A stretch of 64,000 nucleotides of DNA from a virus (IMGVR_UViG_2595698618_000001:15136-79135), one strand, 5' to 3'. Positions 30,573-60,716 are shown, counted from the stretch's first letter. Numbers and translations: made by a program. The notes: generated by a model from the letters alone, not told the origin.

Positions 30573-30650
30573 TCAGCAAAGTTGAGAGTGAGGTTGGTTT
30601 CTGAATCCCAAGATTTTGGTGGAATTGAAGTATCTCACTCCCTCGGCTGA
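30573..30650 (-). ncRNA. Y-RNA-like RNA #1 (78 nt) between Leu tRNAs
   Basis: UCAGC[C]GAGG/CUUUGCUGA bulged-C helix plus GAGUGAG/CUCACUC; shares 20/22 nt with the RNA upstream of TROVE. Confidence 0.65.
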
Positions 30651-30734
30651 TGAGCCGGGCAGGATTCGAACCTGCAAAGCACTAAAGCGCGAGGTCCTAA
30701 GCCTCGTGAGTTTAACCATTTCTCGTACCGACTC
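30651..30734 (-). tRNA. trnL: tRNA-Leu(TAG)
   Basis: cgagg-ctTAGga-cctcg; long V arm. Confidence 0.9.
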
Positions 30735-30764
30735 GCGTATTTACACTATACGAACTCCTACTAT

Positions 30765-31217
30765 TTAAAACTTTCGATTTAACCCCATCTTACTCCTAAT
30801 CTCATCCTGCTTTCGAGCAACCTCAATATGCTTCGCCAACTTCTGCTGGTCTTCATAAGTAGCAGGCATCCCATCCTTCAAGTGAACCTTATCTCCCTGA
30901 ATATTCACTACACTATTTCCACTAATCGTAGTCGTCTGCGGAGCGCCACCAGTCGTGGTAGACACATTGCCAATACTCACCCCACCCGCGCCAGCAACTC
31001 CATCTACATCATCAAGGATTTTCTCAAGTTCACTCGCCTCTGCACAAGGCTGACGCTGAATCAAGCCAAGCGCGTAATACTTATACTTCTGCACACTTTC
31101 AGGCCCGTCCTTGTAAAAGATGTGCGGAACGCTCTCGCTCAACTCGCAATCTTCGCACTCGAACGTGCCATCCTCGAAGGTGATTGTATGTCCCCCGAGA
31201 CTCACAGCATATTTCAT
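30765..31217 (-). CDS. Zn-ribbon paralog family member
   Basis: Start MKYAV at 31217 (longer call overlaps a tRNA); GHTI...CEDC...YYALG...PC. Confidence 0.55.
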   Translation of the reverse strand: MKYAVSLGGHTITFEDGTFECEDCELSESVPHIFYKDGPESVQKYKYYALGLIQRQPCAEASELEKILDDVDGVAGAGGVSIGNVSTTTGGAPQTTTISGNSVVNIQGDKVHLKDGMPATYEDQQKLAKHIEVARKQDEIRSKMGLNRKF

Positions 31218-31221
31218 TTGA

Positions 31222-31294
31222 CAGGCGTAAGGGGATTCGAACCCCTGTCGCAAGTTTAGAAGACTCGCGGGATAGTCCACTACCTTATACGCCT
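31222..31294 (-). tRNA. trnR: tRNA-Arg(TCT)
   Basis: cgagt-ctTCTaa-acttg. Confidence 0.85.
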
Positions 31295-31329
31295 ACACGA
31301 AAATAAGACTCCCTACTACTTAAATCTTT

Positions 31330-31572
31330 CTACTGGCAATCAGGGCAATACTCCTCGAAGTTAATTGCGATAGGGTCTTCGGGGTCGGGGAATGCCTCCC
31401 TCACCCAATCCGTGTGCTTTACGTCTTGGCTGACCCGCTTCTCCTCGCTGACGATTTCGGAATAATCGTAACTCCCGTGAACGTCAACGTATGCTCCCTC
31501 CTCGAATGTCGCGTCTAAGGTGATGGCTCCACAACCATCGCAAATTAGGTGCTTGCCTAACATAACGCCCAC
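31330..31572 (-). CDS. Small Zn-ribbon protein
   Basis: CDGC...CPDC. Confidence 0.55.
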   Translation of the reverse strand: MGVMLGKHLICDGCGAITLDATFEEGAYVDVHGSYDYSEIVSEEKRVSQDVKHTDWVREAFPDPEDPIAINFEEYCPDCQ

Positions 31573-31639
31573 GACAGGACTCGAACCTGCAATCTCTGGC
31601 TTCGAAGGCCATTGCCTTATCCAATTAGGCTACGTGGGC
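31566..31639 (-). tRNA. trnR: tRNA-Arg(TCG)
   Basis: tggc-ctTCGaa-gcca; GTTCGAGTC. Confidence 0.9.
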
Positions 31640-31758
31640 AAACAATTATTGTGACGTGTGGGGTACTCCTTATCTAAGTTGGATATAGATATTAAATTCC
31701 CCTCGGGGTAGCCCTCTCACTCCTTCCACCCCTTACCTGACTTACGGCTTCCGGGTAC

Positions 31759-32277
31759 TTAAATCTTTCGATTATCCCGACGCCGATACTTCCCACAGGG
31801 ACAATTCCGGTCAGTCTTCTCCAACATATAGATTGCCAAACGCTCTCTACGCCATTTCTCAAGCGTATTGTACGTCTGCACAGTCCCGTGTCGTTCCTCA
31901 ACGTGTGTCGGCAACTTACCAAACTCTTGCACGTAGCCGCAATTTCGGCATTGTGCGAGGCCGTATTCCGTGCCGACTCCGCAAACAATCTCCCTGTCTC
32001 GATACTCGAATACGTCTCCTTCTTCCTCCATCATTTTCTCCATTAGTCCACGCATTGCTGATTCGAGTTGTCTGAATACTAAGTCTTCGTGTCCTGCTTG
32101 GAGTAGTTCATCGGTGATGGCAAATTCGTTGCCGTATTTCGTACCATTGTGTCGTTTGCTGATGCGTACTACTTCAGCCATTCGTGATGGCTCGTACATA
32201 TGGTGTACGTTTAACTCACCGATGTTGAGTTCGTCGGAGAACGAGTGCGTAATGTCTATTAAGTCTTCCTCGTCCAT
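31759..32277 (-). CDS. Zn-ribbon paralog family member with N-terminal extension
   Basis: CRNC...IYML...CPC. Confidence 0.5.
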   Translation of the reverse strand: MDEEDLIDITHSFSDELNIGELNVHHMYEPSRMAEVVRISKRHNGTKYGNEFAITDELLQAGHEDLVFRQLESAMRGLMEKMMEEEGDVFEYRDREIVCGVGTEYGLAQCRNCGYVQEFGKLPTHVEERHGTVQTYNTLEKWRRERLAIYMLEKTDRNCPCGKYRRRDNRKI

Positions 32278-32311
32278 ATGGGAAGTTCGCACTCTAACTA
32301 TAAAAAGGTTA

Positions 32312-32397
32312 CGCCGAGCAGAGGATTTGAACCTCTTGGCCGCATATGCGACCGTCTGTTTTCAAAACAGACTGAGTTTGCCTGACTCAATCTCGGC
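32312..32397 (-). tRNA. trnS: tRNA-Ser(TGA)
   Basis: tctgt-ttTGAaa-acaga; long V arm. Confidence 0.9.
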
Positions 32398-32402
32398 TCA
32401 AG

Positions 32403-32474
32403 AGTCGGGAGAGGGATTCGAACCCCCGTACACCGAATCTGCTGTCCGGGCCGTGACCACTCTGGCATCCCGAC
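32403..32474 (-). tRNA. trnC: tRNA-Cys(GCA), atypical A33
   Basis: ccgga-caGCAga-ttcgg; U73 discriminator. Confidence 0.75.
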
Positions 32475-32483
32475 TACGCTGAG

Positions 32484-32774
32484 TCAATTACACCCATTTA
32501 GGAAGTATCGTCCCAAGGGTATAAGTTTAATGGTTTGAACGTGAATCTCGTGTGAGGGTTTGACGGTTCCTCTAATTCCTTCTTCTCTGTGGCAGTTTTT
32601 GCAGTAGAGGTTTAGGTGGAAGTAGATTCGTCCGTCGTCTGTTTCGTGAACGTCATTGTGTAGTAGCACAATGTGGTGGCCGTTCCACGTTATCGGGAAG
32701 TATGAGCGTTTGTACCCGTAGGCTTCAACTTGCTTGATTTGCTCGTTGAGTTCGCTACGAGTACCGAGGGTCAT
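32484..32774 (-). CDS. Zn-ribbon paralog family member
   Basis: GHHIVL...CKNC...LIPLG...GC. Confidence 0.55.
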   Translation of the reverse strand: MTLGTRSELNEQIKQVEAYGYKRSYFPITWNGHHIVLLHNDVHETDDGRIYFHLNLYCKNCHREEGIRGTVKPSHEIHVQTIKLIPLGRYFLNGCN

Positions 32775-32775
32775 A

Positions 32776-32874
32776 TTATCCGAAGAACGTGGTTGGGCCG
32801 TCCGTACAGTCGAGGCAGACGCCTCGCTCGTTCAAGATTGCTTTCTGTTCGTCGCACCGTGAGCATTGCTTCAT
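32776..32874 (-). CDS. 32-aa zinc-finger microprotein (below track cutoff)
   Basis: MKQCSRCDEQKAILNERGVCLDCTDGPTTFFG; fills the gap between tRNA-Ile and the next ORF. Confidence 0.7.
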   Translation of the reverse strand: MKQCSRCDEQKAILNERGVCLDCTDGPTTFFG

Positions 32875-32875
32875 A

Positions 32876-32950
32876 TGCGTCCGGTTGGATTTGAACCAAC
32901 AAATCTTTCCGTTATCAGCGGAACGCCTTACCTGATTTGGCTACGAACGC
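32876..32950 (-). tRNA. trnI: tRNA-Ile(GAT)
   Basis: ttccg-ctGATaa-cggaa. Confidence 0.9.
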
Positions 32951-32953
32951 GCA

Positions 32954-33026
32954 TAGTCGGTAGAGGATTCGAACCTCTGTCACGAGGGTCAGAGCCTCGT
33001 ATGATTGGCCGCTACACAAACCGACT
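32954..33026 (-). tRNA. trnQ: tRNA-Gln(CTG)
   Basis: cgagg-ctCTGac-cctcg; A1:U72 as in archaeal tRNA-Gln. Confidence 0.9.
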
Positions 33027-33028
33027 AA

Positions 33029-33111
33029 CGCCGAGGGAAGGATTCGAACCTTCTGACCATAAAGGCCGTTGGATTAGCAATCCAACCGAGTTTGCCTGAC
33101 TCAACCACGGC
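33029..33111 (-). tRNA. trnS: tRNA-Ser(GCT)
   Basis: ttgga-ttGCTaa-tccaa; long V arm. Confidence 0.9.
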
Positions 33112-33114
33112 TCA

Positions 33115-33185
33115 TACGAGGAACCTGAATCGAACAGGTAGTGCCGGTCCATCTGACCGGAGTGTTTCCATTACACTATCCTCGT
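33115..33185 (-). tRNA. Atypical tRNA-like gene (nominal GAT anticodon, no U33)
   Basis: Perfect acceptor, D and T stems; ccggt-caGATgg-accgg. Confidence 0.6.
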
Positions 33186-33248
33186 GTATTATAGTGGCAG
33201 TTGTCTCCACTCGGACTACGACGGTGGCCTGCCGCATCGTCCAATTAG

Positions 33249-33333
33249 CGCCGAGGGCAGGATTCGAACCTGCATTCCACAATGGGAGCCTGTTTTCGAG
33301 ACAGGTGAGCGACCAGATTGCTCAACCACCGGC
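33249..33333 (-). tRNA. trnS: tRNA-Ser(CGA)
   Basis: cctgt-ctCGAaa-acagg; long V arm. Confidence 0.9.
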
Positions 33334-33338
33334 TCGTA

Positions 33339-33409
33339 TGAGGTCTGAGAGATTTGCACTCCCATCACTCGCTCTGGAGGCGAGTAGGATTCTATTACCC
33401 CAAGACCTC
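33339..33409 (-). tRNA. trnW: tRNA-Trp(CCA), intronless, T-loop TGCAAAT
   Basis: ctcgc-ctCCAga-gcgag. Confidence 0.8.
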
Positions 33410-33412
33410 TCA

Positions 33413-33485
33413 TAGTCCCCCGAGGAATCGAACCTCGCTCTCTCGGTCCAAAGCCGAGCGTCTTTCGCCAGCGGACTCGGGGACT
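33413..33485 (-). tRNA. trnQ: tRNA-Gln(TTG)
   Basis: ctcgg-ctTTGga-ccgag; A1:U72. Confidence 0.9.
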
Positions 33486-33530
33486 TCATTATAGCGTAAG
33501 TGCTATGGGTATTTAAGTCTTGCGATTCCC

Positions 33531-33629
33531 TAATACTTGCCACGCACCGGGAATCCTAAAAAGTGGAGATTTGACTCCACGAAATTTGCGAACTCTGAAT
33601 CGAGCATCGTGAAGTCATTGTGTGTATTA
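33531..33629 (-). ncRNA. Candidate structured ncRNA with own promoter
   Basis: Promoter at ~33645-33662; terminal UAAUAC/GUAUUA; GUGGAG/CUCCAC hairpin; no credible ORF. Confidence 0.4.
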
Positions 33630-33668
33630 CCCTATACGGGGTCCTCCTATATAAATCTTTCGATTTAA

Positions 33669-33741
33669 TGGGCCGAGCAGGAATCGAACCCGCGATGGGA
33701 GGTTAAAAGCCTCCTGCGTTAAGCCATTTCGCCACCGGCCC
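33669..33741 (-). tRNA. trnK: tRNA-Lys(TTT)
   Basis: ggagg-ctTTTaa-cctcc. Confidence 0.9.
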
Positions 33742-33745
33742 GCAA

Positions 33746-33816
33746 ATCCAGCAGAGGGAGTTGAACCCTCACGTCAGCCATACCAAAGCCGTGCCCTACC
33801 ATTAGACCATACTGGA
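33746..33816 (-). tRNA. trnT: tRNA-Thr(GGT)
   Basis: cggct-ttGGTat-ggctg (weak stem); U73. Confidence 0.7.
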
Positions 33817-33819
33817 TAA

Positions 33820-33893
33820 ATCCGCTGGTGGGAATCGAACCCACAACCTCTCGCTTACGAGGCGAGTGCCCGTCCAAATTGGGCCACAACGGA
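33820..33893 (-). tRNA. trnT: tRNA-Thr(CGT)
   Basis: ctcgc-ctCGTaa-gcgag. Confidence 0.9.
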
Positions 33894-33895
33894 TA

Positions 33896-33968
33896 ATCCG
33901 GTCGTGGGAGTCGAACCCACCGTCTGTTCCTTACAAGGGAACCGCCACTCCTATGCGGCCTGACCGGA
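33896..33968 (-). tRNA. trnT: tRNA-Thr(TGT)
   Basis: gttcc-ctTGTaa-ggaac. Confidence 0.9.
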
Positions 33969-34090
33969 ACGCTGAATATACTAACCGCTCCACGTTTTTT
34001 TTACTAACATCGAGGAACGTGGAAACGATGAAGTTGTGACTACTTAAAGGCGCGTGCCCGTTGTTGTAGTTTTGGACTTCATCGTTGGAG

Positions 34091-34193
34091 TGGACCGCCC
34101 CGGATTCGAACCGGGAGTTCCTTGCTAATTTGGAGCAGAAGCCGTAACTTCAACTCTTGCAAAGCAAGTGTCTTGCCATTAGACCAGCGGCCC
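34091..34193 (-). tRNA. trnA: tRNA-Ala(TGC) with 31-nt BHB intron (34127..34157)
   Basis: G3:U70; intron at 37/38 with central helix UUUG/CAAA and 3-nt bulges CAA and UUA. Confidence 0.9.
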
Positions 34194-34210
34194 AAGTTGC
34201 GTGACTATAC

Positions 34211-34624
34211 CTATGAACTGCTACTACTTAAAGGTTTCGGTTTGATAATTCCATTGTGTAACTTACGATGACAGTTAGCGCAAATGACGACACACTTCTC
34301 CAACTCCTTGTCAATACGCTCATAGGAAGCGTCGTCTGCTCGAAGTTTGGAAATATTATGCTCTTTGTTGTCAACGTGATGCAAGTCGAGCGCACAAGCA
34401 ACATCCTCGTCGCAGTTTATGCACCCACGCTCACTCTTATAAGTATTGATATATTCTGCCTTCTCACGGCGGCGCTTGTTCTCTTGCTCACGTATTTGCT
34501 CTTTTCGGCCCTCCTTAGCGTAGTAATATTGAGTATGATAGGATAGTTCGTCCCATTCCTCTTGTGATTTATCTACGTGGTTTGGGACTTGTTCTTGATA
34601 TTGGTCTTCTTTGAAAGAACCCAT
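34211..34624 (-). CDS. HNH homing endonuclease
   Basis: CINC...LDLHHV...KCVVICANCHRKLH. Confidence 0.85.
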   Translation of the reverse strand: MGSFKEDQYQEQVPNHVDKSQEEWDELSYHTQYYYAKEGRKEQIREQENKRRREKAEYINTYKSERGCINCDEDVACALDLHHVDNKEHNISKLRADDASYERIDKELEKCVVICANCHRKLHNGIIKPKPLSSSSS

Positions 34625-34687
34625 ACTCTTACAAATAAACTGCTACTACTTAAAGGTTTCGGTTTGAGACTTTCAAACTATTTCATA

Positions 34688-34825
34688 CTATACTGTCTCA
34701 TCCGAAATGGGCGGAACTATTATGTCATCCACCCTTGGGGCATCGTTGACGATACTTGGTGCGATGGTTGTGCCACCGACTAAGAGTATCGCTAACAATA
34801 GCGCGATTATTGGTCTACGATTCAC
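34688..34825 (-). CDS. 45-aa signal-peptide/membrane microprotein (GTG start)
   Basis: MNRRPIIALLLAILLVGGTTIAPS...; promoter at ~34845-34862. Confidence 0.55.
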   Translation of the reverse strand: MNRRPIIALLLAILLVGGTTIAPSIVNDAPRVDDIIVPPISDETV

Positions 34826-34874
34826 GGGGATACTACGCGCTAAGAGTATTTAAGTGTTTCGGAAAAGTGCTTGC

Positions 34875-34970
34875 CGTACTTCTGGAAAGAGGCAGGCTGT
34901 CCCTCCCGCCTATTAGACACAAGGCTGAGTGCGCCTTGCCACAGGGGGCGCTTGCAGTTACGGAAGTACG
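34875..34970 (-). ncRNA. Candidate structured ncRNA directly 3' of the CAT tRNA
   Basis: 8-bp closing stem CGUACUUC/GAAGUACG; internal hairpins CAAGGC/GCCUUG and AGGCGGG/CCUGCCU. Confidence 0.5.
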
Positions 34971-34972
34971 TA

Positions 34973-35058
34973 TTCCGACGATGGGATTCGAACCCATTTC
35001 GTGCGAAGCACAACAGGATATGAGCCTGCCGAGCATAGCCAGACTGCTCAACGTCGGG
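34973..35058 (-). tRNA. tRNA with CAT anticodon and long variable arm (Met or Ile2)
   Basis: gcagg-ctCATat-cctgt; V arm GTGC-TTC-GCAC; C1:A72 mismatch. Confidence 0.8.
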
Positions 35059-35060
35059 AG

Positions 35061-35136
35061 TGGGCTGAACAGGATTTGAACCCGTATGTAGAAGGTCAAG
35101 AGCCTTCCGCGTTTAGCCAAGTTTCGCCATCAGCCC
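35061..35136 (-). tRNA. trnK: tRNA-Lys(CTT)
   Basis: gaagg-ctCTTga-ccttc. Confidence 0.9.
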
Positions 35137-35139
35137 AAG

Positions 35140-35212
35140 TCTCCCGAGTAGGATTCGAACCTACTGCAACACGCTCTACAGGCGTGTACCCTTACCAGCG
35201 GGTCTTCGAGAG
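35140..35212 (-). tRNA. trnY: tRNA-Tyr(GTA), archaeal type
   Basis: cacgc-ctGTAga-gcgtg; C1:G72, short variable loop. Confidence 0.9.
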
Positions 35213-35215
35213 GTA

Positions 35216-35288
35216 CGTCGCAGGGAGGACTTGCACCTCCAACATCTCGGGTAACAGCCGAGTGTTCTACTAATTGAACTACCGCGAC
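35216..35288 (-). tRNA. trnN: tRNA-Asn(GTT), T-loop TGCAAGT
   Basis: ctcgg-ctGTTac-ccgag. Confidence 0.85.
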
Positions 35289-35338
35289 ACGCTGTATACC
35301 ATCATACGTGGTGATGGTATATAAATCTTTCGATTTGA

Positions 35339-35409
35339 TGCGCGATTCGGGAATCGAACCCGAGTCTGCTCCGTGGCAGGGAGCCGTCTTTCCATTGGAC
35401 CAACCACGC
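35339..35409 (-). tRNA. trnG: tRNA-Gly(GCC)
   Basis: gctcc-ctGCCac-ggagc. Confidence 0.9.
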
Positions 35410-35413
35410 GCTA

Positions 35414-35484
35414 TGCGCGGCACGAGAGTCGAACTCGTATCTCAGGCTTGGAAGGCCCGCATCTTGCCATTGGAACAGCCACGC
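35414..35484 (-). tRNA. trnG: tRNA-Gly(TCC)
   Basis: cgggc-ctTCCaa-gcctg. Confidence 0.9.
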
Positions 35485-35489
35485 TCAAG

Positions 35490-35563
35490 GTCCGGGCACG
35501 AGATTCGCACTCGTATCTCGACCGTCACAGGGCCGAATGTTAACTTTTCCACCAGCGCCGGAC
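35490..35563 (-). tRNA. trnH: tRNA-His(GTG), T-loop TGCGAAT
   Basis: cggcc-ctGTGac-ggtcg; encoded G-1:C73; acceptor stem has a bulge. Confidence 0.75.
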
Positions 35564-35606
35564 ACGCTTTCTGGATTAATACCTATGCACTACTACTATA
35601 TAAATC

Positions 35607-36416
35607 TTACGATTTGTAATCCCGATAATCCGACTTCGCCCTCAAATAATACTCACTATAAATCGCAGAATTACGCTCATTCTTATCCAAATCATTCCAC
35701 TCATCACGCCACGCATAAATCTCCTCAAAGCCAGAAGAACGTTCGCTGGTTACAACAAGAGAAGAACCATCCTTCCGAAACGTGAAGTGTGAGAACCGAG
35801 TTACGTACTTACTCATTGTGTGTAGTCGCTACCTTCGATATAATCGCCGTTGTTCAGTCGAGTCATATCTACCTCCCACGAGCCGTTCACTCTCTTAACC
35901 GGGACAGAACGATTTTCGAGTTGCGCCATATCCTCAACGGGAACGTCGAGAGCGTCGAGAACGGAGGGGAGAGTCCTATCAGACTCCCAATATTGTGGGA
36001 CAGAAAGTGAAAATACTTCGTCACCAGCATCAGGGTAATCAAGTGTAATATCAAGTGTCTCACCACTACCGTTAGTTGCTAACTCCATTTCCACGACAGG
36101 AGCGTAATAGCCATTTTCCGTGGCTTGTTTGATTTGCGTCAGTTCGGCAGAAATTTCCGCAGGGTCATTAGTTCTCGGCATACAGGAATATTCGAGCGCC
36201 TACTACTTAAACCTTTCGATGTTCCATTAAAATTAGTTTGTAAAGTTCCATCTTATCGAGTCCCATAACTTCTTCGTAGTCGAATACTGCGATTACGTCG
36301 TCGCACCAATTGCAGTAGACGTAGACTTTCTTAACTTTATCGAAAAGAGCGATTTCGTAATGGGCATACTCGTCTTTGACGAGAGTAAAACTCATCTCGT
36401 CAGGAAATTCTGCCAT
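35607..36416 (-). other. Three hypothetical ORFs inside the tRNA array (35607..35816, 35813..36181, 36207..36416)
   Basis: Acidic ORFs with promoters at ~36200-36217; last has CNWC. Confidence 0.5.
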
Positions 36417-36421
36417 CGGAG

Positions 36422-36497
36422 TGCTGATGACAGGAATTGAACCCGCGACCTCTACGCTGAGAACGTAGCGTCTCTCGCCAGCGGAGACTCCATCAGC
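36422..36497 (-). tRNA. trnE: tRNA-Glu(CTC)
   Basis: ctacg-ttCTCag-cgtag. Confidence 0.8.
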
Positions 36498-36501
36498 AAA
36501 G

Positions 36502-36575
36502 TGGGCCGACCCGGATTTGAACCGAGATGCGCCTGTTCTTCAAACAGGTGGATTCCCAAATTATCCTATCGACCC
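36502..36575 (-). tRNA. trnF: tRNA-Phe(GAA)
   Basis: cctgt-ttGAAga-acagg. Confidence 0.9.
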
Positions 36576-36578
36576 GCG

Positions 36579-36944
36579 TTAGTATTCCAAGTTGGAATGT
36601 TCTTTTCTGTGACAGTTCGCGCAGAGGATGATGCATTTCTCCATCTCCTCCTTAATCGCTTCTTTTGAGTAACCATCGTTCGCCAGTTTAGCCACACTTT
36701 CACTCTTATCATCGTTATGATGATGGAAGTCGAGTGCGGCTGGATGCTCCTCGTCACAGTTGGAACATCCTCGTTCGTGCTTATAGTCGGCTACCCATTG
36801 ACGAAGTTTGGCCTTTCGGTTAGCAATGCGTTCCTTCTCCTCCTCTCTGTTGCGATAGTAGTATCGCATTGAGGGAGCGAGGTCTTCCCATTGCTTTCCA
36901 TCAGGAAGGTCTACGCCTTCCGGTTTGGGCTTCATCTCCGTCAT
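36579..36944 (-). CDS. HNH homing endonuclease (paralog of 34211..34624)
   Basis: CSNC...LDFHHH...KCIILCANCHRKEH; wedged between two tRNAs. Confidence 0.85.
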   Translation of the reverse strand: MTEMKPKPEGVDLPDGKQWEDLAPSMRYYYRNREEEKERIANRKAKLRQWVADYKHERGCSNCDEEHPAALDFHHHNDDKSESVAKLANDGYSKEAIKEEMEKCIILCANCHRKEHSNLEY

Positions 36945-36945
36945 A

Positions 36946-37033
36946 TACTGGCTACGAGATTCGAACTCGTGTCTCGACCTCGAAAGGGTCGAAGGATTGG
37001 CTTAATGCCGTGCGTCCACTACCCCAAGCCAGC
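36946..37033 (-). tRNA. trnE: tRNA-Glu(TTC) with 15-nt D-loop insertion (37001..37015)
   Basis: cgacc-ctTTCga-ggtcg; D-loop GTAGTGG[ACGCACGGCATTAAG]CCAATC. Confidence 0.8.
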
Positions 37034-37169
37034 GCGTTGAATCCCCTTTCGGGGAGGTGTACCGTGAGGCGTCACAGTACGCTGACGATGCACCACGGTC
37101 CCTATAACGAGGGTTGGTTAATCCTGCCTTGTGTGGCTCACGTCAGTTAGGGCAAGTCAGTAGGCCCTA
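37034..37169 (-). ncRNA. Structured ncRNA B (~135 nt)
   Basis: Stems UAGGGC/GCCCUA, CUGACG/CGUCAG, CCCU/AGGG, GUACUGUGA/UCACGGUAC, UCCCC-GAAA-GGGGA. Confidence 0.65.
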
Positions 37170-37240
37170 CGCCGAAGCCGGGTAATGCTCCCGAGTCTCG
37201 TGCGTGACAGGCACGCATCTTACTTTTAGACCACTTCGGC
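37170..37240 (-). tRNA. trnD: tRNA-Asp(GTC) with non-canonical T-loop AGCATTA
   Basis: cgtgc-ctGTCac-gcacg; acceptor GCCGAAG/CTTCGGC; G73. Confidence 0.75.
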
Positions 37241-37272
37241 ACTTCGTATTCTTACTAATGCGCCCCTACTAT

Positions 37273-37863
37273 TTAAATCTTTCGATTTATAGCAAGGTCT
37301 TGGTATCTCCTATCATCAAGAACTGGCAACTCCATCAGGGCAACCTCTGCCCACTCGCGGTATTGTCCATTCTTTCGTGTTCGGTGGAATCCATATTTAT
37401 CAAAGAATGGAATCACTTTCTTAACAATATCTCCATACTTGCTTACTTGAAACACGATACTACCCTTTTCTCCATCTCGGCGGGGAGCATATTGGTGTAT
37501 AGTTCCACAATCTAATGTTTGTTTGAGCATATCAATTGCTTCAGGGTCATCATCCGCTACCGTAACTTGGAACGTGAACCTTTTAGAGCCATTCTCTCGC
37601 TTTCTTATGAATGAACCCTCTCCGGCAACAAAGCCTGCAAGAAAATTACCTCGCTCATCACTAATATCCGAAAGGTCTATCTTGTTGGACGATTCGATTG
37701 ATTCTATTTTGTCGAGGTCATCGTGTTTCTGAAGCCCAAGTCGTGAAGCCTTTGCACGAATTGCTTCAGAACTTCGCCCAAACTCATCAGTTAGGTTATC
37801 GGTATATGTAACTGGATATAATTCTTCGAGTTGAGAAATTTCGTCTTGCGTCCATTTACTCAT
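37273..37863 (-). CDS. LAGLIDADG homing endonuclease with N-terminal HTH
   Basis: NFLAGFVAGEGSF...FQVT...; WTQDE...GRSSEAIRAKASRLGL. Confidence 0.85.
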   Translation of the reverse strand: MSKWTQDEISQLEELYPVTYTDNLTDEFGRSSEAIRAKASRLGLQKHDDLDKIESIESSNKIDLSDISDERGNFLAGFVAGEGSFIRKRENGSKRFTFQVTVADDDPEAIDMLKQTLDCGTIHQYAPRRDGEKGSIVFQVSKYGDIVKKVIPFFDKYGFHRTRKNGQYREWAEVALMELPVLDDRRYQDLAINRKI

Positions 37864-37914
37864 ATGTCACAGTATGGACTACAGGTATTTAAGTGTTTCG
37901 TTTTTGCTGTGACA

Positions 37915-38212
37915 GAATGAAAACCTTACGGGAAAGTAAGGCGGTGGTTCCAGCCCACCAGTAGGCCGCCACCCTACGCCCTTGGCCGAGGACCTTTTAC
38001 GGCGGAGTTTTGTCCTAATTTTTGTGCCAGACACCAGTAGGCCGTGACCCTACACTTGACGATTACCGCCAGAGTTGGTTACACCCTGACTACTGTGCTT
38101 CTCACGAAGCAATCCGCGCCTTAGTTCACTTTCGTACCACGAGGGCACGCACGCTTTACGTGGAGTCTTTCATTCACGGTATCCACGCACCGTTATCCCC
38201 TATAATGGGAGA
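37915..38212 (-). ncRNA. Large structured ncRNA A (~260-nt core)
   Basis: Closing stem GAAUGAAA/UUUCAUUC; at least 7 hairpins incl. a GUGA tetraloop; 22-nt internal repeat. Confidence 0.65.
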
Positions 38213-38213
38213 G

Positions 38214-38285
38214 TGGGCAATGAGAGAATCGAACTCCCTTCTCATCCTTCGCAGGGATGTGTCATATCCAGTAGACCAATCGCCC
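38214..38285 (-). tRNA. trnR: tRNA-Arg(GCG)
   Basis: catcc-ctGCGaa-ggatg. Confidence 0.9.
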
Positions 38286-38314
38286 AATTGCGTACTTCTA
38301 CGTATGACCTCCTA

Positions 38315-50934: not shown

Positions 50935-52463
50935 TACCGCGCCGGTTCTACTGATTCAATCTCTTGAATCATCCCATCGACGTTCTCGACCTTCTCGATG
51001 AAGTCGAGGACCTGTTCCGACCAGCCGCTCATATTGTAAACGTCGTGAGCGCCTTCTGGTGTTACGAGGTCGCCGTAGTGTTGTAGGTCGATGAGGTATA
51101 GGCTTGCGTTAGGGTTCTCCGCCTTATACGCATCCCATTCGTCCTTGAAGGACGTGTTGGTTCTCCAAGTGGAGTCGTTCCAGAGTTGCATATCGGTGAA
51201 CACGATGATACGCTCGTAAGAGCGGTCTTCGTTGCGTAGTCCACGGAGGACTTTCCAACCGTTAGTCGAGCCACCGACTCCGACACTCTGCATCTTCTCC
51301 GCGTTGGTGACGAGAGGGTTTCTCGGGTCGGCGTTAATTTCAGCGAAGTCGCTTGCGAAAACGCCAACATCAGATTGCCGTTCGAGCATCATTGCACCGA
51401 ACAGCGTTGCAATCTCCATACATTGCAGTTCCGAGTCTCCCGATACAGAAGACCGCATCGAACCACTCACGTCTACTGCGGTGAACGTATTCTCGAACAC
51501 GTCGGGTAGGTTCTCCGTAGCGACTTCCATCGCATTTTCGAGGAACTCCAGCGCGTTTTTATCGTTAGGCGTGTCTCTGCTCTGCTTGACAGCCTTGTAC
51601 GCTTGGTAGAACCGGAATGGGTACATCTGACTGTTTCGAACCCATTCGTCGGTTACGTCACCAAAGATTTCCTCACCGGAGAGTCCGGCGTCGAGCATAT
51701 TGCGAACGTTGCGAACCCGTGCGAAGATAGGCATCGAGTAGCCATCCTCATTTTCTTCGAGTTGTTCGCGCCAAACCTCAGCCTGACTCCGGCCCTCTTT
51801 ACCGGCTTCAGACATTTCGTTCTCCCACGTATCGGACTGCTTGAGCGGGTCTACGTCAGGATGGGAGTCCAGTTCTCCGAGAGCAATCTGCTCAAAAATT
51901 GCATCTCGCTCCTCATCCCGAGGACGCGGGTGAACGAGGTTCAGCAAGTCGCGGTACTGCCATTCTCTCGAAGGGCGGTCCCACTTTGCAAACTGATACT
52001 CGTTGAAATTGTGGAGAGCATCCTCGATTCCTTTCTTCAGCGGATTCGGGATGGACTTGCCGTACAGGGAAACCTGCATCGCAAGAACTTCCAAGGGTTC
52101 ATCTGCACGCTGAATAACTCCCTCAGCATAACTACGAACGTAACCCTTGGTCCGGTCATCGTTGGCCGACAGTACGAGCAACAGTTGAGGGACTTGCCGA
52201 AGATTCTCAGACTGTCGCGCATACTTAGCCAACTTCAGGACAAATTCTGGATTTACATCCGCCACTCGGTCGAACTCAGTCCGAACGTCATCTAACGAAT
52301 CCTCAGCCGACTCGTAATAAGAGTCTTCGAGGAGGTTCGTCAGCACGTTCTTCGTGAGAGCAACTTCGGGCGAGTCAGGCGAATACGCTTCGCCACCCTC
52401 ATAGTTGTCCTTCTCAGTTCGTTCTGCGACTGTCTCTTTCGTGTCGTTGTAGTTGATTCCCAT
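50934..52463 (-). CDS. rsr: Ro60/TROVE-domain ribonucleoprotein with C-terminal vWA
   Basis: NYEGGEAY; PEFVLKLAKYARQ..NLR; YQFAKW; DLLNLVHP; MYPFRFYQAY; MIDAS DVSGSM; FTDMQ; SGWSE. Confidence 0.9.
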   Translation of the reverse strand: MGINYNDTKETVAERTEKDNYEGGEAYSPDSPEVALTKNVLTNLLEDSYYESAEDSLDDVRTEFDRVADVNPEFVLKLAKYARQSENLRQVPQLLLVLSANDDRTKGYVRSYAEGVIQRADEPLEVLAMQVSLYGKSIPNPLKKGIEDALHNFNEYQFAKWDRPSREWQYRDLLNLVHPRPRDEERDAIFEQIALGELDSHPDVDPLKQSDTWENEMSEAGKEGRSQAEVWREQLEENEDGYSMPIFARVRNVRNMLDAGLSGEEIFGDVTDEWVRNSQMYPFRFYQAYKAVKQSRDTPNDKNALEFLENAMEVATENLPDVFENTFTAVDVSGSMRSSVSGDSELQCMEIATLFGAMMLERQSDVGVFASDFAEINADPRNPLVTNAEKMQSVGVGGSTNGWKVLRGLRNEDRSYERIIVFTDMQLWNDSTWRTNTSFKDEWDAYKAENPNASLYLIDLQHYGDLVTPEGAHDVYNMSGWSEQVLDFIEKVENVDGMIQEIESVEPAR

Positions 52464-52475
52464 TTTGTATCACCA

Positions 52476-52561
52476 CGGTTGAAATTGGAAGTCGGGCCAC
52501 CATTTTAGGCAGGTGACAAAGCCCAATTTTCAATATTGAAGTATCCGACTCCCTCGCACCG
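52476..52561 (-). ncRNA. Y-RNA-like RNA #2, ends 13 nt upstream of the TROVE start codon
   Basis: CGGU-G[C]GAG/UUUC-A-ACCG bulged-C helix; GGAGUCGG/CCGACUUCC; AUACUUCAAU; promoter at ~52590-52608. Confidence 0.7.
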
Positions 52562-52735
52562 GGTTAACGGCATACTATCATAGGGACTCGGACTACTTAA
52601 ACCTTTCGGTTTTCGTGGAAGTAGAGCCGGTCATACCGAGACGAATAACACACCTTCTCCGCATCAGCCGTGTGAAACGTCCCTGCACTCCCAAGATTCA
52701 CCTTCCTCGTGTACGGGTCGCCACAAATAGAACAA

Positions 52736-54690: not shown

Positions 54691-54749
54691 TGTTGTATCA
54701 CCAATTACCCATTGGAGTTAGTCACGTATAAACCTTTCGGAACCTGTTG

Positions 54750-55304: not shown

Positions 55305-55436
55305 TAGCCCCGGTAGGATTCGAACCTACAATCTCTGCTTCCAGATAGCGAAGTAACGCTTCCAATCGCTCCACAAAACGTGGCTGAAATCTCAGAAGCG
55401 ACGTAATAGCGCCTTGAACCATTCGGCCACGGGGCT
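55305..55436 (-). tRNA. tRNA-Gln(CTG)-like gene with 58-nt insertion in the anticodon stem (55350..55407)
   Basis: A1:U72 acceptor AGCCCCG/CGGGGCT; removing the insertion gives ctgct-atCTGga-agcag. Confidence 0.6.
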
Positions 55437-56168
55437 TCGTAAACGTCGGCTAAATTTGAGAACGCGGTTGTGGATTCATAGTCTTGAAGTATGCGTTCTC
55501 GTCGTCCGACAATACACTATTAGGACCCCTACTACTTAAAGGTTTCGAATTTCATCAGCGACTTCGGCGCGAATATCTCTCGATGGAAGCGAACCAAGAG
55601 CAAACGCTATATACAGATGCTCCCGAAACCACTTCTTCGCAAATTCTCCCTGTTCGTCAAAATAAAACGCACTACCACGATACATTTCTTCAGCAATCTG
55701 GTCGAGTAAACGCGGAATCGTATCATCGACAAACGTTTCGTGCGTCTTCGACTCATTCGGACCCGAAAAATGATACCAACTCCCACCAAGGTCCACACCA
55801 CCATAGCGAGAATCATCATTCATCGGGTGAGTGCAGGTAGCGACTAAGTACCCCGCTTCTTCCTCGATAGTAATCCGCAACGACGCCTCACTATAATACG
55901 AAATGTAAAACGTGTATTCAACCATTTAATTCCTCATCTAAAGCGGCGAGCGTCTTCCACAACATCGGAAGTGTTTCATACGACGAATAGCCAAGGCTCT
56001 CCAACGCCGACTGCACACCATTCGTGTGAATGTATCCATCACCAATACAATGATAAATGCAAACCATTGTTTCAACCTTTTCTCGGTGGGATAATTCTCG
56101 ATTCCTTGCCTCTATCGCGTCGGCACTTGTTGTTGAGACTTTGACACCGGGGAAGTCTCCATAGGTTG

Positions 56169-56540: not shown

Positions 56541-56589
56541 ACGCGAACTACGGACTCAAACTACTTAAGTCTTTTTGAAAGCAGACTGA

Positions 56590-57981
56590 CTATTCTGCCT
56601 TGATGGAGAGGAACGGCTTGACTCTATCGACCACTTCGACCGATTCTCCGAGCGCGGCTTCGATTTGTTCAGCAGGCTTGTACGCACCGGGAATCTCGTC
56701 CATCGGCTTCTTCGACATATACACGTCGCCAATCTGTTCCTCGAAATCGTCAGCGTCGAACTTGTCGTGAGCCGCAGTACGCGACATAGCCCGACCAGCA
56801 CCGTGTGCAGACGAGTTATTCCACGAGTCCTTCCCACGCCCTCGGCAGAGGAGCGTTCCGTAAGACATATTCAGAGGCACGACAAGGCGCTCTCCATCGT
56901 GGGCACGGCACGCGCCCTTACGCACAGTCGCGTCCTGAAAGTCGATGTAGTTGTGGACGGACTCAACCTCATCCTCCCACCAGACGGGGACTTCCTCGTT
57001 AGCCTCGCCATCTTCGCCCAAGATAGAACGAACTGCATCGAGGACTGCGACAGCCATCTGCTTGCGCGAGACGCTGGCGTAAGTCTGAGCAAACACCATA
57101 TCCTTGATGTAGCCGTGCGCTTCCTCTCCTTCGAGGTAGTCCAAGTCCGTGTTGCGACCGGATTCAGCGTTCTTCGTCTCCTGAATGAATTGAGACAGTT
57201 CGTTGAACTTCTCCTGAATTGCCTCTCCCTCGAAGTCTGCGCGAATCTTATCCGACTTCGGCTTCCAGTCTTCACCGAGATATGGCTCGATGGAATCAGG
57301 AATCTCCGTCTCAAGCGCACGCTCGTTCATCCTATCGGTGGCTACATCCTGCCAATACTGGGCAATCTGAGCGCCGATGCCACGAGAGCCGGAGTGAATA
57401 ATCACCCAAACGTCGCCCGTCTGCTCCGAGCGACCAAACTCGATGAAGTGGTTGCCTCCACCGAGTGTACCGACGCTGTTGATAGCGCGGCCTTGGTCGT
57501 ACCCTACGCGCTTGCACACGTTCTTGAAGTAGTCGAGGCCGTACACGTCTTCGGGGTCTTCCTCGATAGCGAACTGCGTCTGCTCCGTGAACTCGTCCAG
57601 TTTGTAGACACACTCACGCCACGGGAAGTCGTTGCCCATATGGAAGCCGTTTCTTCCGTGAACGTCGAATCCCATTGGAATACGCTCGCGCACAGCAGAG
57701 TCGAGTTCCTCAAGCGAATCGAAGTCAACGTCCCCGAGTTTGATAGCGAACATTCCGCAACCAATGTCCACGCCAATCGTGTTTGGAACAATCCGATTCT
57801 TGACAGGCATCGTGAAACCGATAACCGCTCCTGCTCCCCAATGGGTGTCAGGCATAATCGCAACGTCGCCCTCACCCTCGAACGCAGGGTGGTCCACCAT
57901 CTCCTGAATCTGGTCTTTAGCCTCCGACTCGACGGAATCAATCTTTACGTCAGCCGTGTTGTAATCGCCTTCAATCTTCAT
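56590..57981 (-). CDS. rtcB: RtcB 3'-phosphate/5'-OH RNA ligase
   Basis: MPDTH.G.G; IGVDIGCGM; GTLGGGNHFIE; HSGSRG; HNY; RKGA; HGAGRAMSR; DEIPGAYKP; start MKIEG at 57981. Confidence 0.97.
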   Translation of the reverse strand: MKIEGDYNTADVKIDSVESEAKDQIQEMVDHPAFEGEGDVAIMPDTHWGAGAVIGFTMPVKNRIVPNTIGVDIGCGMFAIKLGDVDFDSLEELDSAVRERIPMGFDVHGRNGFHMGNDFPWRECVYKLDEFTEQTQFAIEEDPEDVYGLDYFKNVCKRVGYDQGRAINSVGTLGGGNHFIEFGRSEQTGDVWVIIHSGSRGIGAQIAQYWQDVATDRMNERALETEIPDSIEPYLGEDWKPKSDKIRADFEGEAIQEKFNELSQFIQETKNAESGRNTDLDYLEGEEAHGYIKDMVFAQTYASVSRKQMAVAVLDAVRSILGEDGEANEEVPVWWEDEVESVHNYIDFQDATVRKGACRAHDGERLVVPLNMSYGTLLCRGRGKDSWNNSSAHGAGRAMSRTAAHDKFDADDFEEQIGDVYMSKKPMDEIPGAYKPAEQIEAALGESVEVVDRVKPFLSIKAE

Positions 57982-58099
57982 ACTCGAAAGAAGGGGCCAC
58001 AACGTTATAAACGTTGCGGTTAAGCCGAACTCAATCGGAACCAACGGGTTCCGACAGTAACGCTACTCGTTACTGCTAACCGGCGGTTGAGGTTGAAAA

Positions 58100-58566: not shown

Positions 58567-58606
58567 ACACTTATGTATTCGGCTTCGTGGTATTTAAGTC
58601 TTGCGA

Positions 58607-59257
58607 TTATAGAAGTTGCTCCAACTCGTCGTCGCTGATTGTACGCAAGTCAGGGAACTTCTCCACTAATTCTTCGGCAGGATTCCACACAGCGGGGTGG
58701 CCGAGAATTGGCTTACTTGCGACATAATCCGACATATGAAGAATCTGCTCCCAATCAGTTTCAGGATTCTTGCCTTCAGCCCACGCTCCGTTATGTGCGT
58801 GAATTGCTCCATAGACTTGCCTCGGCGCTCCACCAAGGACACGAGCCACGTCACTCCCGATAACGTCGTGGTTCTGCACAGTATGCTCATTCCTCTCTGA
58901 AGGCCAACCGTATTTAAGCATATCGTGAATTAGCGCCGCACTCTTACCAGCCTCTCGGTCGAACTCTGTGATAAGCCCTTGCTCTAAGTATGAACGACTT
59001 AGGACGAGATACGTGATGAAGACACGCTTCGTGTGGAGCCAATTGCCGAACTGCCCGGTTTCGTCTTTAGCGTGATACTTGCCCGTTGAAGAAGATGGTC
59101 GATTCCAGAAATGGTCAGGACACCCCTTCAAGAACGTCTGTTCTGTAACTTCTTGTAATTCCGGGTCAAGAATAGTGCCAACTTCGGGGAGTAGTCGGTA
59201 CAACTCCTCCTCTGACAAGTTATTCTTCACTCGGTTGATTCTCTCTACTTTCTCCAT
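58607..59257 (-). CDS. HD-domain phosphohydrolase
   Basis: SSTGKYH...HTKRV; AALIHDMLKYG; H...G; IHAHNGAW; LHMSDY. Confidence 0.8.
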   Translation of the reverse strand: MEKVERINRVKNNLSEEELYRLLPEVGTILDPELQEVTEQTFLKGCPDHFWNRPSSSTGKYHAKDETGQFGNWLHTKRVFITYLVLSRSYLEQGLITEFDREAGKSAALIHDMLKYGWPSERNEHTVQNHDVIGSDVARVLGGAPRQVYGAIHAHNGAWAEGKNPETDWEQILHMSDYVASKPILGHPAVWNPAEELVEKFPDLRTISDDELEQLL

Positions 59258-59289
59258 AAGCGAGTATACGCACTCCGACTATATAAGAC

Positions 59290-59400
59290 TTACGTTCCGA
59301 GCCACATACTGAATAGTACGAACAGCGTCAGGAGTAAGCCGATATACGGATGTGCGATAAATCCAATGATTAGTACGCCGATTGTAATCCATAGTAGCAT
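59290..59400 (-). CDS. 36-aa membrane microprotein
   Basis: MLLWITIGVLIIGFIAHPYIGLLLTLFVLFSMWLGT. Confidence 0.55.
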   Translation of the reverse strand: MLLWITIGVLIIGFIAHPYIGLLLTLFVLFSMWLGT

Positions 59401-59401
59401 C

Positions 59402-59869
59402 TTACGTCGTGTCGTTGAATGTGATTCCATTTGTAGCGTTCCCTCCTTCAACTCCGTTGTCGTCTCTGCCTTGCCAGAGCGCCTCTCGTGCGAGTCTGTT
59501 GGCAGTCTTGTTCTGTTCAGTCGTACTACGCTCCTCCCATTCTAACTCCCATTCCTCGAACTCGAATAACTTCCTGAGAGCGAGTCTCCGGTACTCAAAC
59601 CACTTGTCATCGTACATATCGTCAGGGTCACGGATTTTGTCAACGAGCGGTTGACAATCGACTACAACGCGAATCGTATCATCATAAGCCGTGACTTGCT
59701 CTTGGGCAACTTCGAGTCCTTGCATCAAACCGTGCCACTCCGCCTCCATTGAGGTGTAGTCTCCCTCGACGTAGTGCTTCCCTTCGATTCGGCCTCCCGT
59801 CTTTAAGTTGATAACGTACCCGAGGCCGAAAACTCCTTCTCCTTTAGAGGCGTCCGTGTATAGTTTCAT
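59402..59869 (-). CDS. RNase HI-like nuclease
   Basis: LYTDAS; EAEWHGL..GLE; VDCQPLV; NKTANRLAREA (last catalytic Asp appears as Asn). Confidence 0.8.
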   Translation of the reverse strand: MKLYTDASKGEGVFGLGYVINLKTGGRIEGKHYVEGDYTSMEAEWHGLMQGLEVAQEQVTAYDDTIRVVVDCQPLVDKIRDPDDMYDDKWFEYRRLALRKLFEFEEWELEWEERSTTEQNKTANRLAREALWQGRDDNGVEGGNATNGITFNDTT

Positions 59870-60101
59870 ACCTCCTCCGTGAGTGGAAGGTTATCGTGTG
59901 CGACCATTTCGAGTCTGTCTTTATATAGGTATCCTTTAGAGCCAGTTCCGCTACGGCATTCAGGGCATCGAGTGCGGTATCGCTTTTCGATAAGGACTGC
60001 ACCCTGTGCAGTAGCGATAACGTCGAAACTGCCAGTATACTTGAATGAGTCTTCATCGACCTCATCGACCGTATACTTGTGTGAGTCCCATTGCGTACAC
60101 T

Positions 60102-60443
60102 TCATCCGAATACCACCTCTGGATGTTGCTCGTATTCGACTACGTGAACGTGATAGTGATTGGGGACGTGAGCCATAATTTCGCGTAGCGTATGCTCTCC
60201 GCAGATTGCTGACACGATTTCCTTAATATGCTCGCGTTCCTCGTCAGTAGGTTCTGTCGTGTGTCGCTTGAGGACGACCATAGGTTCGCCGTTGGGTTTA
60301 TTAATAAGTAGGCAAGTGTCGTCCTCGTGGAACCAGCGCGTCTTCTTGTCAGGTTTGGGACAGAACGCGCATTGTGTTTCCTCGTTGGGTAGATTCTCTC
60401 TTGCTGGCATTCGCGCCGAGCCGGGGATATTTCTCCTTGGCAT
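60102..60443 (-). CDS. HIT-like nucleotide hydrolase
   Basis: CAFC...; VVLKRH; VPNHYHVHV. Confidence 0.65.
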   Translation of the reverse strand: MPRRNIPGSARMPARENLPNEETQCAFCPKPDKKTRWFHEDDTCLLINKPNGEPMVVLKRHTTEPTDEEREHIKEIVSAICGEHTLREIMAHVPNHYHVHVVEYEQHPEVVFG

Positions 60444-60615
60444 ACCCTAATGTAGAGCATACATATACTTAAGGCTATCGGATTTTGGTTTCCGAAAAAC
60501 GAAAGGGAGAAAGGGAGAGTGGAGCGAGGGCAAGCACGTCACACGAGCAAAGTGAGGCTACCGGATGCCGCTTTGTTGCACCAGACCGAGACTGGAATAA
60601 ATTGGCTGTTAATTC

Positions 60616-60716
60616 AACTACGAGGGAGCCACCCAAGGAAGGACTCGAACCTTCATTCTTTAGAGTTACAGTCTAATGTTGTACCTTGAAGTAACGGTCA
60701 GCCTTCGTCTCGCGTT
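60616..60716 (-). ncRNA. YrlA-like Y RNA candidate #3 with tRNA-like domain
   Basis: 5' stem strand GCGAGACGAAGG; UUACUUCAA; arm UUAGA-cuGUAac-UCUAA; T-arm GAAGG-UUCGAGU-CCUUC; own promoter at ~60735-60755. Confidence 0.65.

Follow-up and report, generated by a model that had tools for sequence, protein, structure and literature searches.

A Ro60 gene and five candidate Y-type RNAs in the archaeal virus HGTV-1

Ro60 and the elements that carry its likely binding handle

The archaeal virus HGTV-1 probably encodes a Ro60 ring protein together with five Y-type RNAs, E1 to E4 and Y5, that bear its likely binding handle. The window analysed, at 64,000 nucleotides (IMGVR_UViG_2595698618_000001:15136-79135), covers bases 15136-79135 of the 143,855-bp record of the virus, and every feature of the Ro60/Y-like RNA module lies on its minus strand. 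In the handle, an internal loop separates two helices; its 5' strand carries CGA(R), its 3' strand is rich in U, and (A/U)UACUUC comes afterwards. This handle is tightly linked to TROVE (Ro60) genes in haloarchaea, haloviruses, bacteria and phages. An earlier note on this DNA had proposed a viral Ro60 with its own Y-like RNAs near the RNA ligase RtcB and an RlaP-like nucleotidyltransferase. This core is supported by the architecture of the RNA family, by a covariance model of haloarchaeal elements, by covarying copies in related viruses and by the precedent of the phage phiLo Ro60.

The Ro60 gene named by the note (50934..52463; 509 amino acids) is recognised by Pfam (TROVE, 3e-22; vWA_Ro60, 1e-7). 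As seen in Pfam and PDB comparisons, its product has the TROVE HEAT-repeat ring and a vWA domain with a MIDAS motif, of which residues D331, S333 and S335 are invariant in 38 homologues; more than 1,300 homologues were found. The nearest solved structure is the Ro60 of the Thermus phage phiLo (PDB 9KOP, E = 1e-33, residues 18-494), which binds two Y-like RNAs encoded upstream of its own gene, RNAs that were found by the CGAA bulge in a stem-bulge-stem (PMC12135203). By analogy with the Xenopus, Deinococcus and phiLo proteins, for which this mode of binding has been shown, HGTV-1 Ro60 would bind the CGA loop and the helices that flank it. The description of HGTV-1 in PMC8651126 mentions neither a TROVE/Ro60 gene nor Y RNAs.

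Three of the RNA elements share one design. E1 (30573..30650) and E4 (55445..55510) are candidate YrlB-like Y RNAs, and E2 (52472..52564) places a Y-type handle within the 5' leader of TROVE messenger RNA. Common to them are an outer stem of 5 bp, a CGA(R) internal loop, a covarying inner stem of 8-9 bp, AUACUUCAA, a variable module and a U-rich 3' loop; on the 3' side, the variable middle gives way to the 3' strand of the inner stem, then AAnUUU and the outer 3' strand. From 5' to 3', E1 reads UCAGC, CGA, GGGAGUGAG, A-UACUUCAA, module, CUCACUCUC, AACUUU and GCUGA, and E4 reads GUCGG, ACGAC, GAGAACGC, A-UACUUCAA, module, GCGUUCUC, AAAUUUAG and CCGAC. The inner stem differs in sequence from copy to copy, its pairing is always kept, and no D, anticodon or T arm is present. 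Against shuffled sequences, the fold z-scores are -3.0 for E1, -1.8 for E2 and -2.1 for E4.

This design recalls the hallmarks published for bacterial YrlA/YrlB, YrlA being defined by GNCGAAN0-1G, thought to be the Ro60 site, a stem, and YUAY opening a tRNA-like module (Chen et al. 2014, PMC4201824). The CGA motif is exact in E3 (GACGAAG) and reads GCCGAGG in E1, UGCGAGG in E2, GACGACG in E4 and AGCGAUU in Y5, so that CGA is invariant and the next base varies. After the inner stem, E3 and Y5 have UUAC, an exact YUAY, and E1, E2 and E4 have AUAC, with a purine first.

All three elements flagged by the earlier note, E1, E2 and E3 (approximately 60616..60716), are real and have the features described for them: (G/C)CGAG lies near the 5' end, the two ends pair with each other, and UACUUCAA follows the inner stem's 5' strand. 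E2 is slightly wider than proposed (52564-52472), E3 is the weakest of them, and the total rises from three to five with E4 and Y5 (55305..55436). E4 came to light when every copy of TACTTCAA was listed; this sequence occurs 11 times in the window against 1.8 expected, a number reached in 0 of 100 shuffles.

The elements are encoded adjoining the Ro60 gene and on its strand, with E2 in the leader, E4 and Y5 3 kb upstream and E3 8 kb upstream, all in the gene block, and with E1 20 kb off, embedded in the tRNA gene cluster. Across the genome, 28 boxes of the form cgaaaNN-TTTAAGTAG, composed of a B recognition element and a TATA box, were found, most of them shortly upstream of ATG codons (the leaderless ATGs that were counted are about 30 nt 3' of the box) or tRNA starts. 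One of these predicted promoters serves E2 and the TROVE gene (52593..52613, ccgaaagg-TTTAAGTAG), and the box scan placed others before an E4-Y5 unit (55532..55552) and before E3 (60739..60759). The 5' ends of E4 and E3 lie approximately at the predicted transcription start, so that the transcripts would begin at the handle, and both therefore look like dedicated RNA genes. E1 lies between two tRNA genes, with its start one base behind tRNA-Leu(UAG) and its end 8 nt ahead of tRNA-Leu(GAG), so 3' and 5' processing of these tRNAs would release it. We infer that E1 and E4 are free YrlB-like RNAs. E2 occupies the otherwise unusual 108-nt leader of the Ro60 messenger RNA, where its outer 3' strand overlaps a Shine-Dalgarno-like GGUGAU, 9 nt before the TROVE ATG.

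The handle across TROVE loci and related viruses

About 215 TROVE loci from metagenomes, haloarchaeal genomes and viral contigs were compared. The exact TACTTCAA after the stem recurs just upstream of TROVE, on its strand, at loci whose proteins are 25-50% identical, including Halogranum rubrum and several phage-like contigs. The layout of stem, CGA, stem and UACUUC is found upstream of TROVE in haloarchaea, haloviruses, bacteria and phages, and a descriptor scan gave about 120 non-redundant elements adjoining TROVE with this layout. Bacterial and phage copies read ...GCGAA-stem-UUACUUC, and haloarchaeal copies ...GUCGA-stem-(A/C/U)UAC(U/G)UC. On the TROVE strand, the 900 nt upstream of the gene have an 8.5-fold higher density of the sequence-only pattern CGA-N8-12-TAC[TG]TC, and 66% of the matches in this zone have a stem score >= 7, compared with 11% elsewhere. 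Among the same elements (about 120), UACUUC after the inner stem is kept in short YrlB-like forms of bacteria, phages and archaea that have no tRNA module, and for this reason its role is probably not confined to opening a tRNA-like variable loop.

One element upstream of TROVE in Halogranum is kept, by nhmmer with E values as low as ~1e-11, in the majority of haloarchaeal TROVE loci, which hold up to 3-4 tandem elements, one tRNA and often arrays of 13-16 tRNA genes. In three loci (L094:3096-6001, L114:3793-6001 and L133:155-6001), these form islands on a single strand, running from 13-16 tRNA genes through 3-4 tandem Y-type RNAs and a tRNA to Ro60; some such islands lie on plasmids. We know of no description of islands that combine tRNA arrays, Y-type RNAs and Ro60.

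A covariance model, R1, was built from 14 haloarchaeal TROVE-upstream elements, none of them viral, with only the two helices, and was run with filters off. Its top three matches in the window (128 kb searched) are E1 (23.8 bits, E = 8e-4), E2 (21.6 bits, E = 3e-3) and E4 (19.6 bits, E = 1e-2), which means that a haloarchaeal model tied to TROVE neighbourhoods recovers the viral copies; E3 and Y5 were not matched there. The fourth and fifth matches (44266-44306 and 44594-44652), the only others with E < 1, fall inside a ThyX-like open reading frame (ORF) and were dismissed as chance. On 97 halo-type loci, R1 gave 195 matches, nearly all on the TROVE strand; in cellular loci, they lie within about 0.8 kb upstream, with up to 3-4 per locus. 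In these matches, pairing holds in 98.6% of cells and compensatory changes are seen at 13 of 17 pairs, against 29-59% of cells paired in slid controls.

Contigs of related viruses, with Ro60 proteins 50-70% identical to that of HGTV-1, keep the gene order RNase H-like, HD, (RtcB), Ro60, RlaP, a 600-amino-acid protein and ThyX, and R1 elements occupy their intergenic gaps at the positions of E3, E4 and E2. The syntenic copies covary in six such contigs. The orthologues of E4 (L238, L239, L240, L242 and L243) keep GUCGG-ACGAC and AUUUAG-CCGAC, and their inner stems differ and still pair: E4-type inner stems read GAGAACGC, GGUGACAG, GAUGACGG or AGGAAGGC, each with its matching partner strand. The E2-type leaders of L011 and L238 show compensatory changes as well. 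Over 11 viral copies, all nine pairs of the inner helix have changed on both sides, with 97% of cells paired; for the two helices together, the figures are 93.9% of cells paired and 15 of 17 pairs compensated, in an alignment fitted to the model, which favours structure, with slid controls far lower (33-50%). Conservation and covariation of the motif beside TROVE genes of related viruses, whose absence the earlier note had named as refuting its proposal, were found. Taken with the folds, they describe a stem-bulge-stem, in which E3 is weak. Single-sequence nhmmer with E1, E2, E4 or E3 found almost nothing outside HGTV-1, as the copies have diverged too far for searches by sequence alone. Megablast with 9 kb revealed no close relative in a phage collection.

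Beside this covariation, we note a recurrent feature of the leaders. In HGTV-1 (52472-52481) and in L011, L238, L239, L240 and L244, the handle of the Ro60 messenger RNA leader has a conserved Shine-Dalgarno-like sequence, GAGGUGAU or GGUGAU, within its outer 3' strand or at it, which suggests translational autoregulation.

Several results weigh against counting these elements as Y RNAs. The earlier note had suggested a check with the Rfam models for Y_RNA (RF00019, metazoan) and YrlA (RF02553), and neither matched an element, whether the window was searched or, at E <= 10, a 540-nt set made up of the elements; the leader orthologue in L238 likewise has no Y_RNA or YrlA match. E1, E2 and E4 have CGAG or CGAC instead of CGAA, and AUAC instead of YUAY; at bacterial and phage loci, elements linked to TROVE show AUAC, UUAC and CUAC alike. 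R1 found nothing at E <= 0.05 when run on 100 distant TROVE loci (bacterial, phage and others), so the link to bacterial Y RNAs relies on the shared motifs and on weak profile ranks. Furthermore, E3 is missed by R1 and folds no better than shuffled sequence (z = +0.8), and E1 is remote from the Ro60 gene. Haloarchaea are not known to have PNPase, the best-known effector of bacterial Y RNAs; the effector would then have to differ.

The profile ranks come from a 25-nt profile of bacterial and phage 5' halves, which was used instead of full elements as the bacterial 3' strands were out of register in MAFFT. Over the whole genome (288 kb searched), E2, Y5, E3 and E1 rank 2, 4, 5 and 6 (E = 0.15-1.2 each); four of the six best matches are predicted sites. 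As for YrlA itself, no element reaches the Rfam gathering cut-off of 69 bits. RF02553 gave weak matches of at most 19.9 bits on the whole HGTV-1 genome, none on the elements and most in the tRNA cluster, and its matches in five haloarchaeal genomes were set aside, those mapped being tRNA cross-hits. Distant phage loci score 26-46 bits, which is sub-threshold, with a full-length match in L198 (45.9 bits, E = 3e-9). A likeness of E1 to human Y1 RNA served as no more than a lead, and Rfam Y_RNA gives it no support.

The positions of the elements and the silence of the Rfam Y RNA models would also suit cis-acting processing or regulatory structures, such as hairpins of leaders, spacers of precursor tRNAs, or sites bound by another protein (RtcB, RlaP or an endonuclease, for instance), that do not bind Ro60 and resemble Y RNAs superficially. 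E2 does form a 5' leader, E1 fills a tRNA spacer, and E4 stands before a tRNA-like gene. However, the handle is specific to TROVE genes across archaea, bacteria and phages, whose proteins are 25-50% identical, and is always on the TROVE strand; it is absent from most HGTV-1 promoters and tRNA spacers; and experimentally bound Y RNAs are defined by the same motif set. We consider a purely cis-acting role improbable. Still less credit is due to the idea of decayed tRNA genes or chance repeats without a function of their own, which we hold to be very improbable: the partial match of E3 to the tRNA model, the place of E1 within the tRNA cluster and the fact that UACUUCAA can be aligned to tRNA positions 8-15 speak for it, whereas E1, E2 and E4 lack the arms of a tRNA, the helices are kept by compensatory changes in related viruses and in more than 100 haloarchaeal copies, and three elements have dedicated promoters.

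E3 and the tRNA-shaped RNA Y5

Within the family of Y-type RNAs, two members combine the handle with parts of a tRNA. E3, a candidate YrlA-like RNA, has the exact GACGAAG and UUAC, an anticodon-like hairpin, a T arm and its own predicted promoter, and its 5' half, GACGAAG-GGCUGACCG-UUACUUCAA, matches the bacterial consensus best. The Rfam tRNA model aligns with it at positions 8-63 only (35.1 bits). Its end-to-end helix is weak, with four G-U pairs and one mismatch in the inner helix and a 3' loop of merely CC. The syntenic counterpart of E3 in L238 is a clean short form. We read E3, with moderate confidence, as a diverged member with an inserted tRNA-like module.

Y5 (132 nt) has the acceptor, D and T arms of a tRNA and a capped Y handle in place of the anticodon arm. 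The acceptor stem spans 7 bp, U8 is present, the D arm holds GG, the T arm is perfect, and the region between the D and T arms reads CGCUUCUGA-GAUUUCAG-CCAC-GUUUU-GUGG-AGCGA-UUGGAAGCG-UUAC. This insert is the family handle in reverse order, capped by a loop. A scan of the HGTV-1 genome found no capped handles other than that of Y5. A tRNA-like gene follows within about 10 nt of an E4-type element in HGTV-1 and in five relatives, and the handle helix differs in every orthologue and still pairs. In a six-way alignment of the acceptor, T and capped handle helices, pairing holds in 90.5% of cells and both sides have changed at 17 of 21 pairs, figures that understate the covariation, since MAFFT misaligned one row.

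Considering that Rfam aligns the full tRNA model to Y5 (45.7 bits) and that ARAGORN with introns calls it a tRNA-Ser(GGA) with a 36-nt intron, Y5 might be an ordinary intron-containing tRNA, for example Ser-GGA, from which the handle-like part is excised as an intron and whose ends are joined by RtcB; the excised intron might still be a Y RNA. HGTV-1 has both RtcB and a genuine intron-containing tRNA-Ala, and introns of archaeal pre-tRNAs typically base-pair with the anticodon, which counts in favour of this explanation. On the other hand, ARAGORN with introns assigns the orthologues to Ser-GGA, Ser-ACT, Ala-CGC or nothing, with oddly placed introns, so the anticodons are inconsistent. No bulge-helix-bulge was seen; instead, a 9-bp helix runs into a two-sided internal loop. 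The supposed intron holds the full family signature (the U-rich loop, NCGA, and UUAC after the stem) and its helix covaries, and other tRNAs of HGTV-1 already cover all 20 amino acids, Ser-GGA included. A spliced tRNA is therefore an unlikely account of Y5 in our view.

As a Y RNA, Y5 is best compared with bacterial YrlA, which has been described as a tRNA in circularly permuted form, its acceptor loop closed and its CCA end not free (10.1101/312249). We regard Y5 as its unpermuted counterpart, with an open acceptor and a closed handle. As to the modules, Y5 combines T, D and acceptor arms with a handle in the place of the anticodon stem, and E3 has only the T arm and an anticodon-like arm. 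With its open acceptor ends, Y5 could undergo CCA addition. In the Y RNA published in 2014, the tRNA-like module likewise gains tRNA-type termini; there, however, the termini come from cleavage of the closed acceptor loop that a permuted gene encodes, whereas the Y5 gene is laid out as a tRNA with a loop-capped handle.

It is tempting to go further. Y5 might represent a new kind of Y RNA, with genuine tRNA ends matured by the viral CCA-adding enzyme, perhaps aminoacylated, and with Ro60 seated on the arm at the anticodon position, while the leader handle E2 would make Ro60 titrate its own synthesis against its RNA partners. This combined proposal is speculative and, on balance, rather unlikely. 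If true, Y5 would couple Ro60 directly to the tRNA-handling machinery, or would be a decoy for host defence nucleases that cut tRNAs.

The reading of Y5 as a Y RNA also bears on the tRNA count. In its default mode, ARAGORN found 35 tRNAs in the window, and Rfam added two: an intron-containing tRNA-Ala(UGC) at 34091-34193 and the 132-nt "tRNA" that we re-read as Y5. The 37 tRNA genes of the earlier note accordingly become 36, the number published for HGTV-1 (PMC8651126). The tRNA-Ala(UGC) is genuine, lies on the minus strand, and has a 31-nt intron, and ARAGORN misses it in default mode.

Proposed function, known systems and neighbouring genes

We propose the following for the Ro60 particle. 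E1 would be freed by tRNA processing enzymes, and E4 would start at its own promoter. As the ribosome-binding site lies partly in the outer helix of E2, Ro60 would repress translation from its own messenger RNA as soon as the pool of free Y RNA is saturated. The tRNA-like bodies of Y5 and E3 may bring tRNA-handling enzymes to the particle, or the particle to the enzymes, with RtcB, RlaP, the CCA-adding enzyme and RNase P/Z as candidates, and the particle would serve the surveillance or repair of tRNAs during infection. Judging from the 36 viral tRNAs and several ligases, tRNA surveillance or repair is most likely its role. The idea of the earlier note that the system protects or repairs tRNAs cut by host anticodon nucleases may hold; it draws on the gene content (36 tRNAs, RtcB, RlaP, HD, Rnl2 ligases and a CCA-adding enzyme) and on proposals made for bacterial and phage systems (PMC7824862; PMC7790460).

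Among known systems, the module resembles the YrlA/YrlB RNAs that accompany Rsr in bacteria and phages (the Salmonella rsr-yrlBA-rtcBA operon, Mycobacterium smegmatis and mycobacteriophages; PMC4201824; RF02553): the RNAs are on the strand of the Ro60 gene with RtcB near, their ends are paired, the stem is broken by a loop with a motif of the (GN)CGA(A) type, YUAY or, in three copies, AUAC follows the inner stem, and, as with yrlB and yrlA, a short form without a tRNA-like module stands beside a form with one. It differs in belonging to an archaeal virus and its hosts, in having no Rfam match, in carrying CGAG or CGAC for CGAA in three copies, in spreading five copies over 30 kb, one of them as a messenger RNA leader, and in the open acceptor and closed handle of Y5. 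The closest solved relative, phiLo Ro60 with Yrl1 and Yrl2 (PMC12135203; PDB 9KOP, 9L5Y), is also virus-encoded and has its own Y-like RNAs upstream, with the CGAA bulge in a stem-bulge-stem. For phiLo, binding was seen by electrophoretic mobility shift assay (EMSA) and cryo-electron microscopy. The phiLo system differs in that its host is a bacterium with a PNPase that forms a RYPER-like complex, there are only two RNAs, and neither a tRNA cluster nor a tRNA-framed member was reported. The haloarchaeal TROVE-upstream RNAs behind R1 share the handle, the several copies per locus and the association with tRNA arrays, and E1, E2 and E4 score as members; the cellular copies differ in being tandem, directly upstream of TROVE and mostly equipped with a T arm.

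We found no published description of these haloarchaeal RNAs. The earlier note knew of no Y RNAs from archaea or their viruses, and the literature that we searched likewise holds no description of an archaeal or haloviral Y RNA; Ro60 is noted there in Asgard viruses, with no mention of Y RNAs. While Ro60 is said to span all three domains, its Y RNA partners have been described only from animals, bacteria and phages, and the partnership would now extend to archaea. Islands in which tRNA arrays, 3-4 Y RNAs and Ro60 lie together occur in many haloarchaea, and the module of the virus may therefore belong to a broader archaeal system of tRNA surveillance or conflict. The tRNA-framed member and the leader-embedded handle are arrangements unreported for bacterial Y RNAs, and they bear on the purpose of the tRNA-like module. 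The halovirus HGTV-1 has been isolated and can be cultured, and the genus of its host, Halogranum, is known, which allows a direct test of an archaeal Ro60/Y RNA particle.

RtcB (Pfam, 1e-64) spans 56590..58044, somewhat longer than the 56590..57981 first given, and is syntenic in L238 and L241. The RlaP nucleotidyltransferase (49408..50289; Pfam, 7e-36) was likewise borne out and lies downstream of TROVE in L238, L239 and L241-L243. Pfam also places an HD-domain phosphohydrolase (58607..59257; HD, 2e-5) and an RNase H-like (RVT_3) protein (59402..59869) in the block with TROVE, RtcB and RlaP, and both are syntenic in the relatives. For HGTV-1, PMC8651126 lists RtcB, the CCA-adding enzyme, a lysyl-tRNA synthetase (LysRS) and two Rnl2 ligases.

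The tRNA gene cluster in which E1 is embedded extends over 27131..38285 (ARAGORN and Rfam). Near its end, at 37915-38212 on the minus strand, about 300 nt after tRNA-Arg(GCG) are free of ORFs and have no Rfam match at E <= 10 and no Y handle. In the related viruses, the place of E2 directly upstream of TROVE is taken by a homing-endonuclease gene (HNH or LAGLIDADG) at L241:9317-9970 and L242:9295-9960, where no handle was detected. An eRF1-like gene of the baeRF/acVLRF1 families lies in the Ro60/HD/RNase H-like block at L242:7748-8779 and L243:2463-3551. Finally, the intergenic segment L241:2520-2565 holds a mini tRNA-like hairpin, in which an acceptor-like stem, GUGCC/GGCAC, encloses a perfect T arm.

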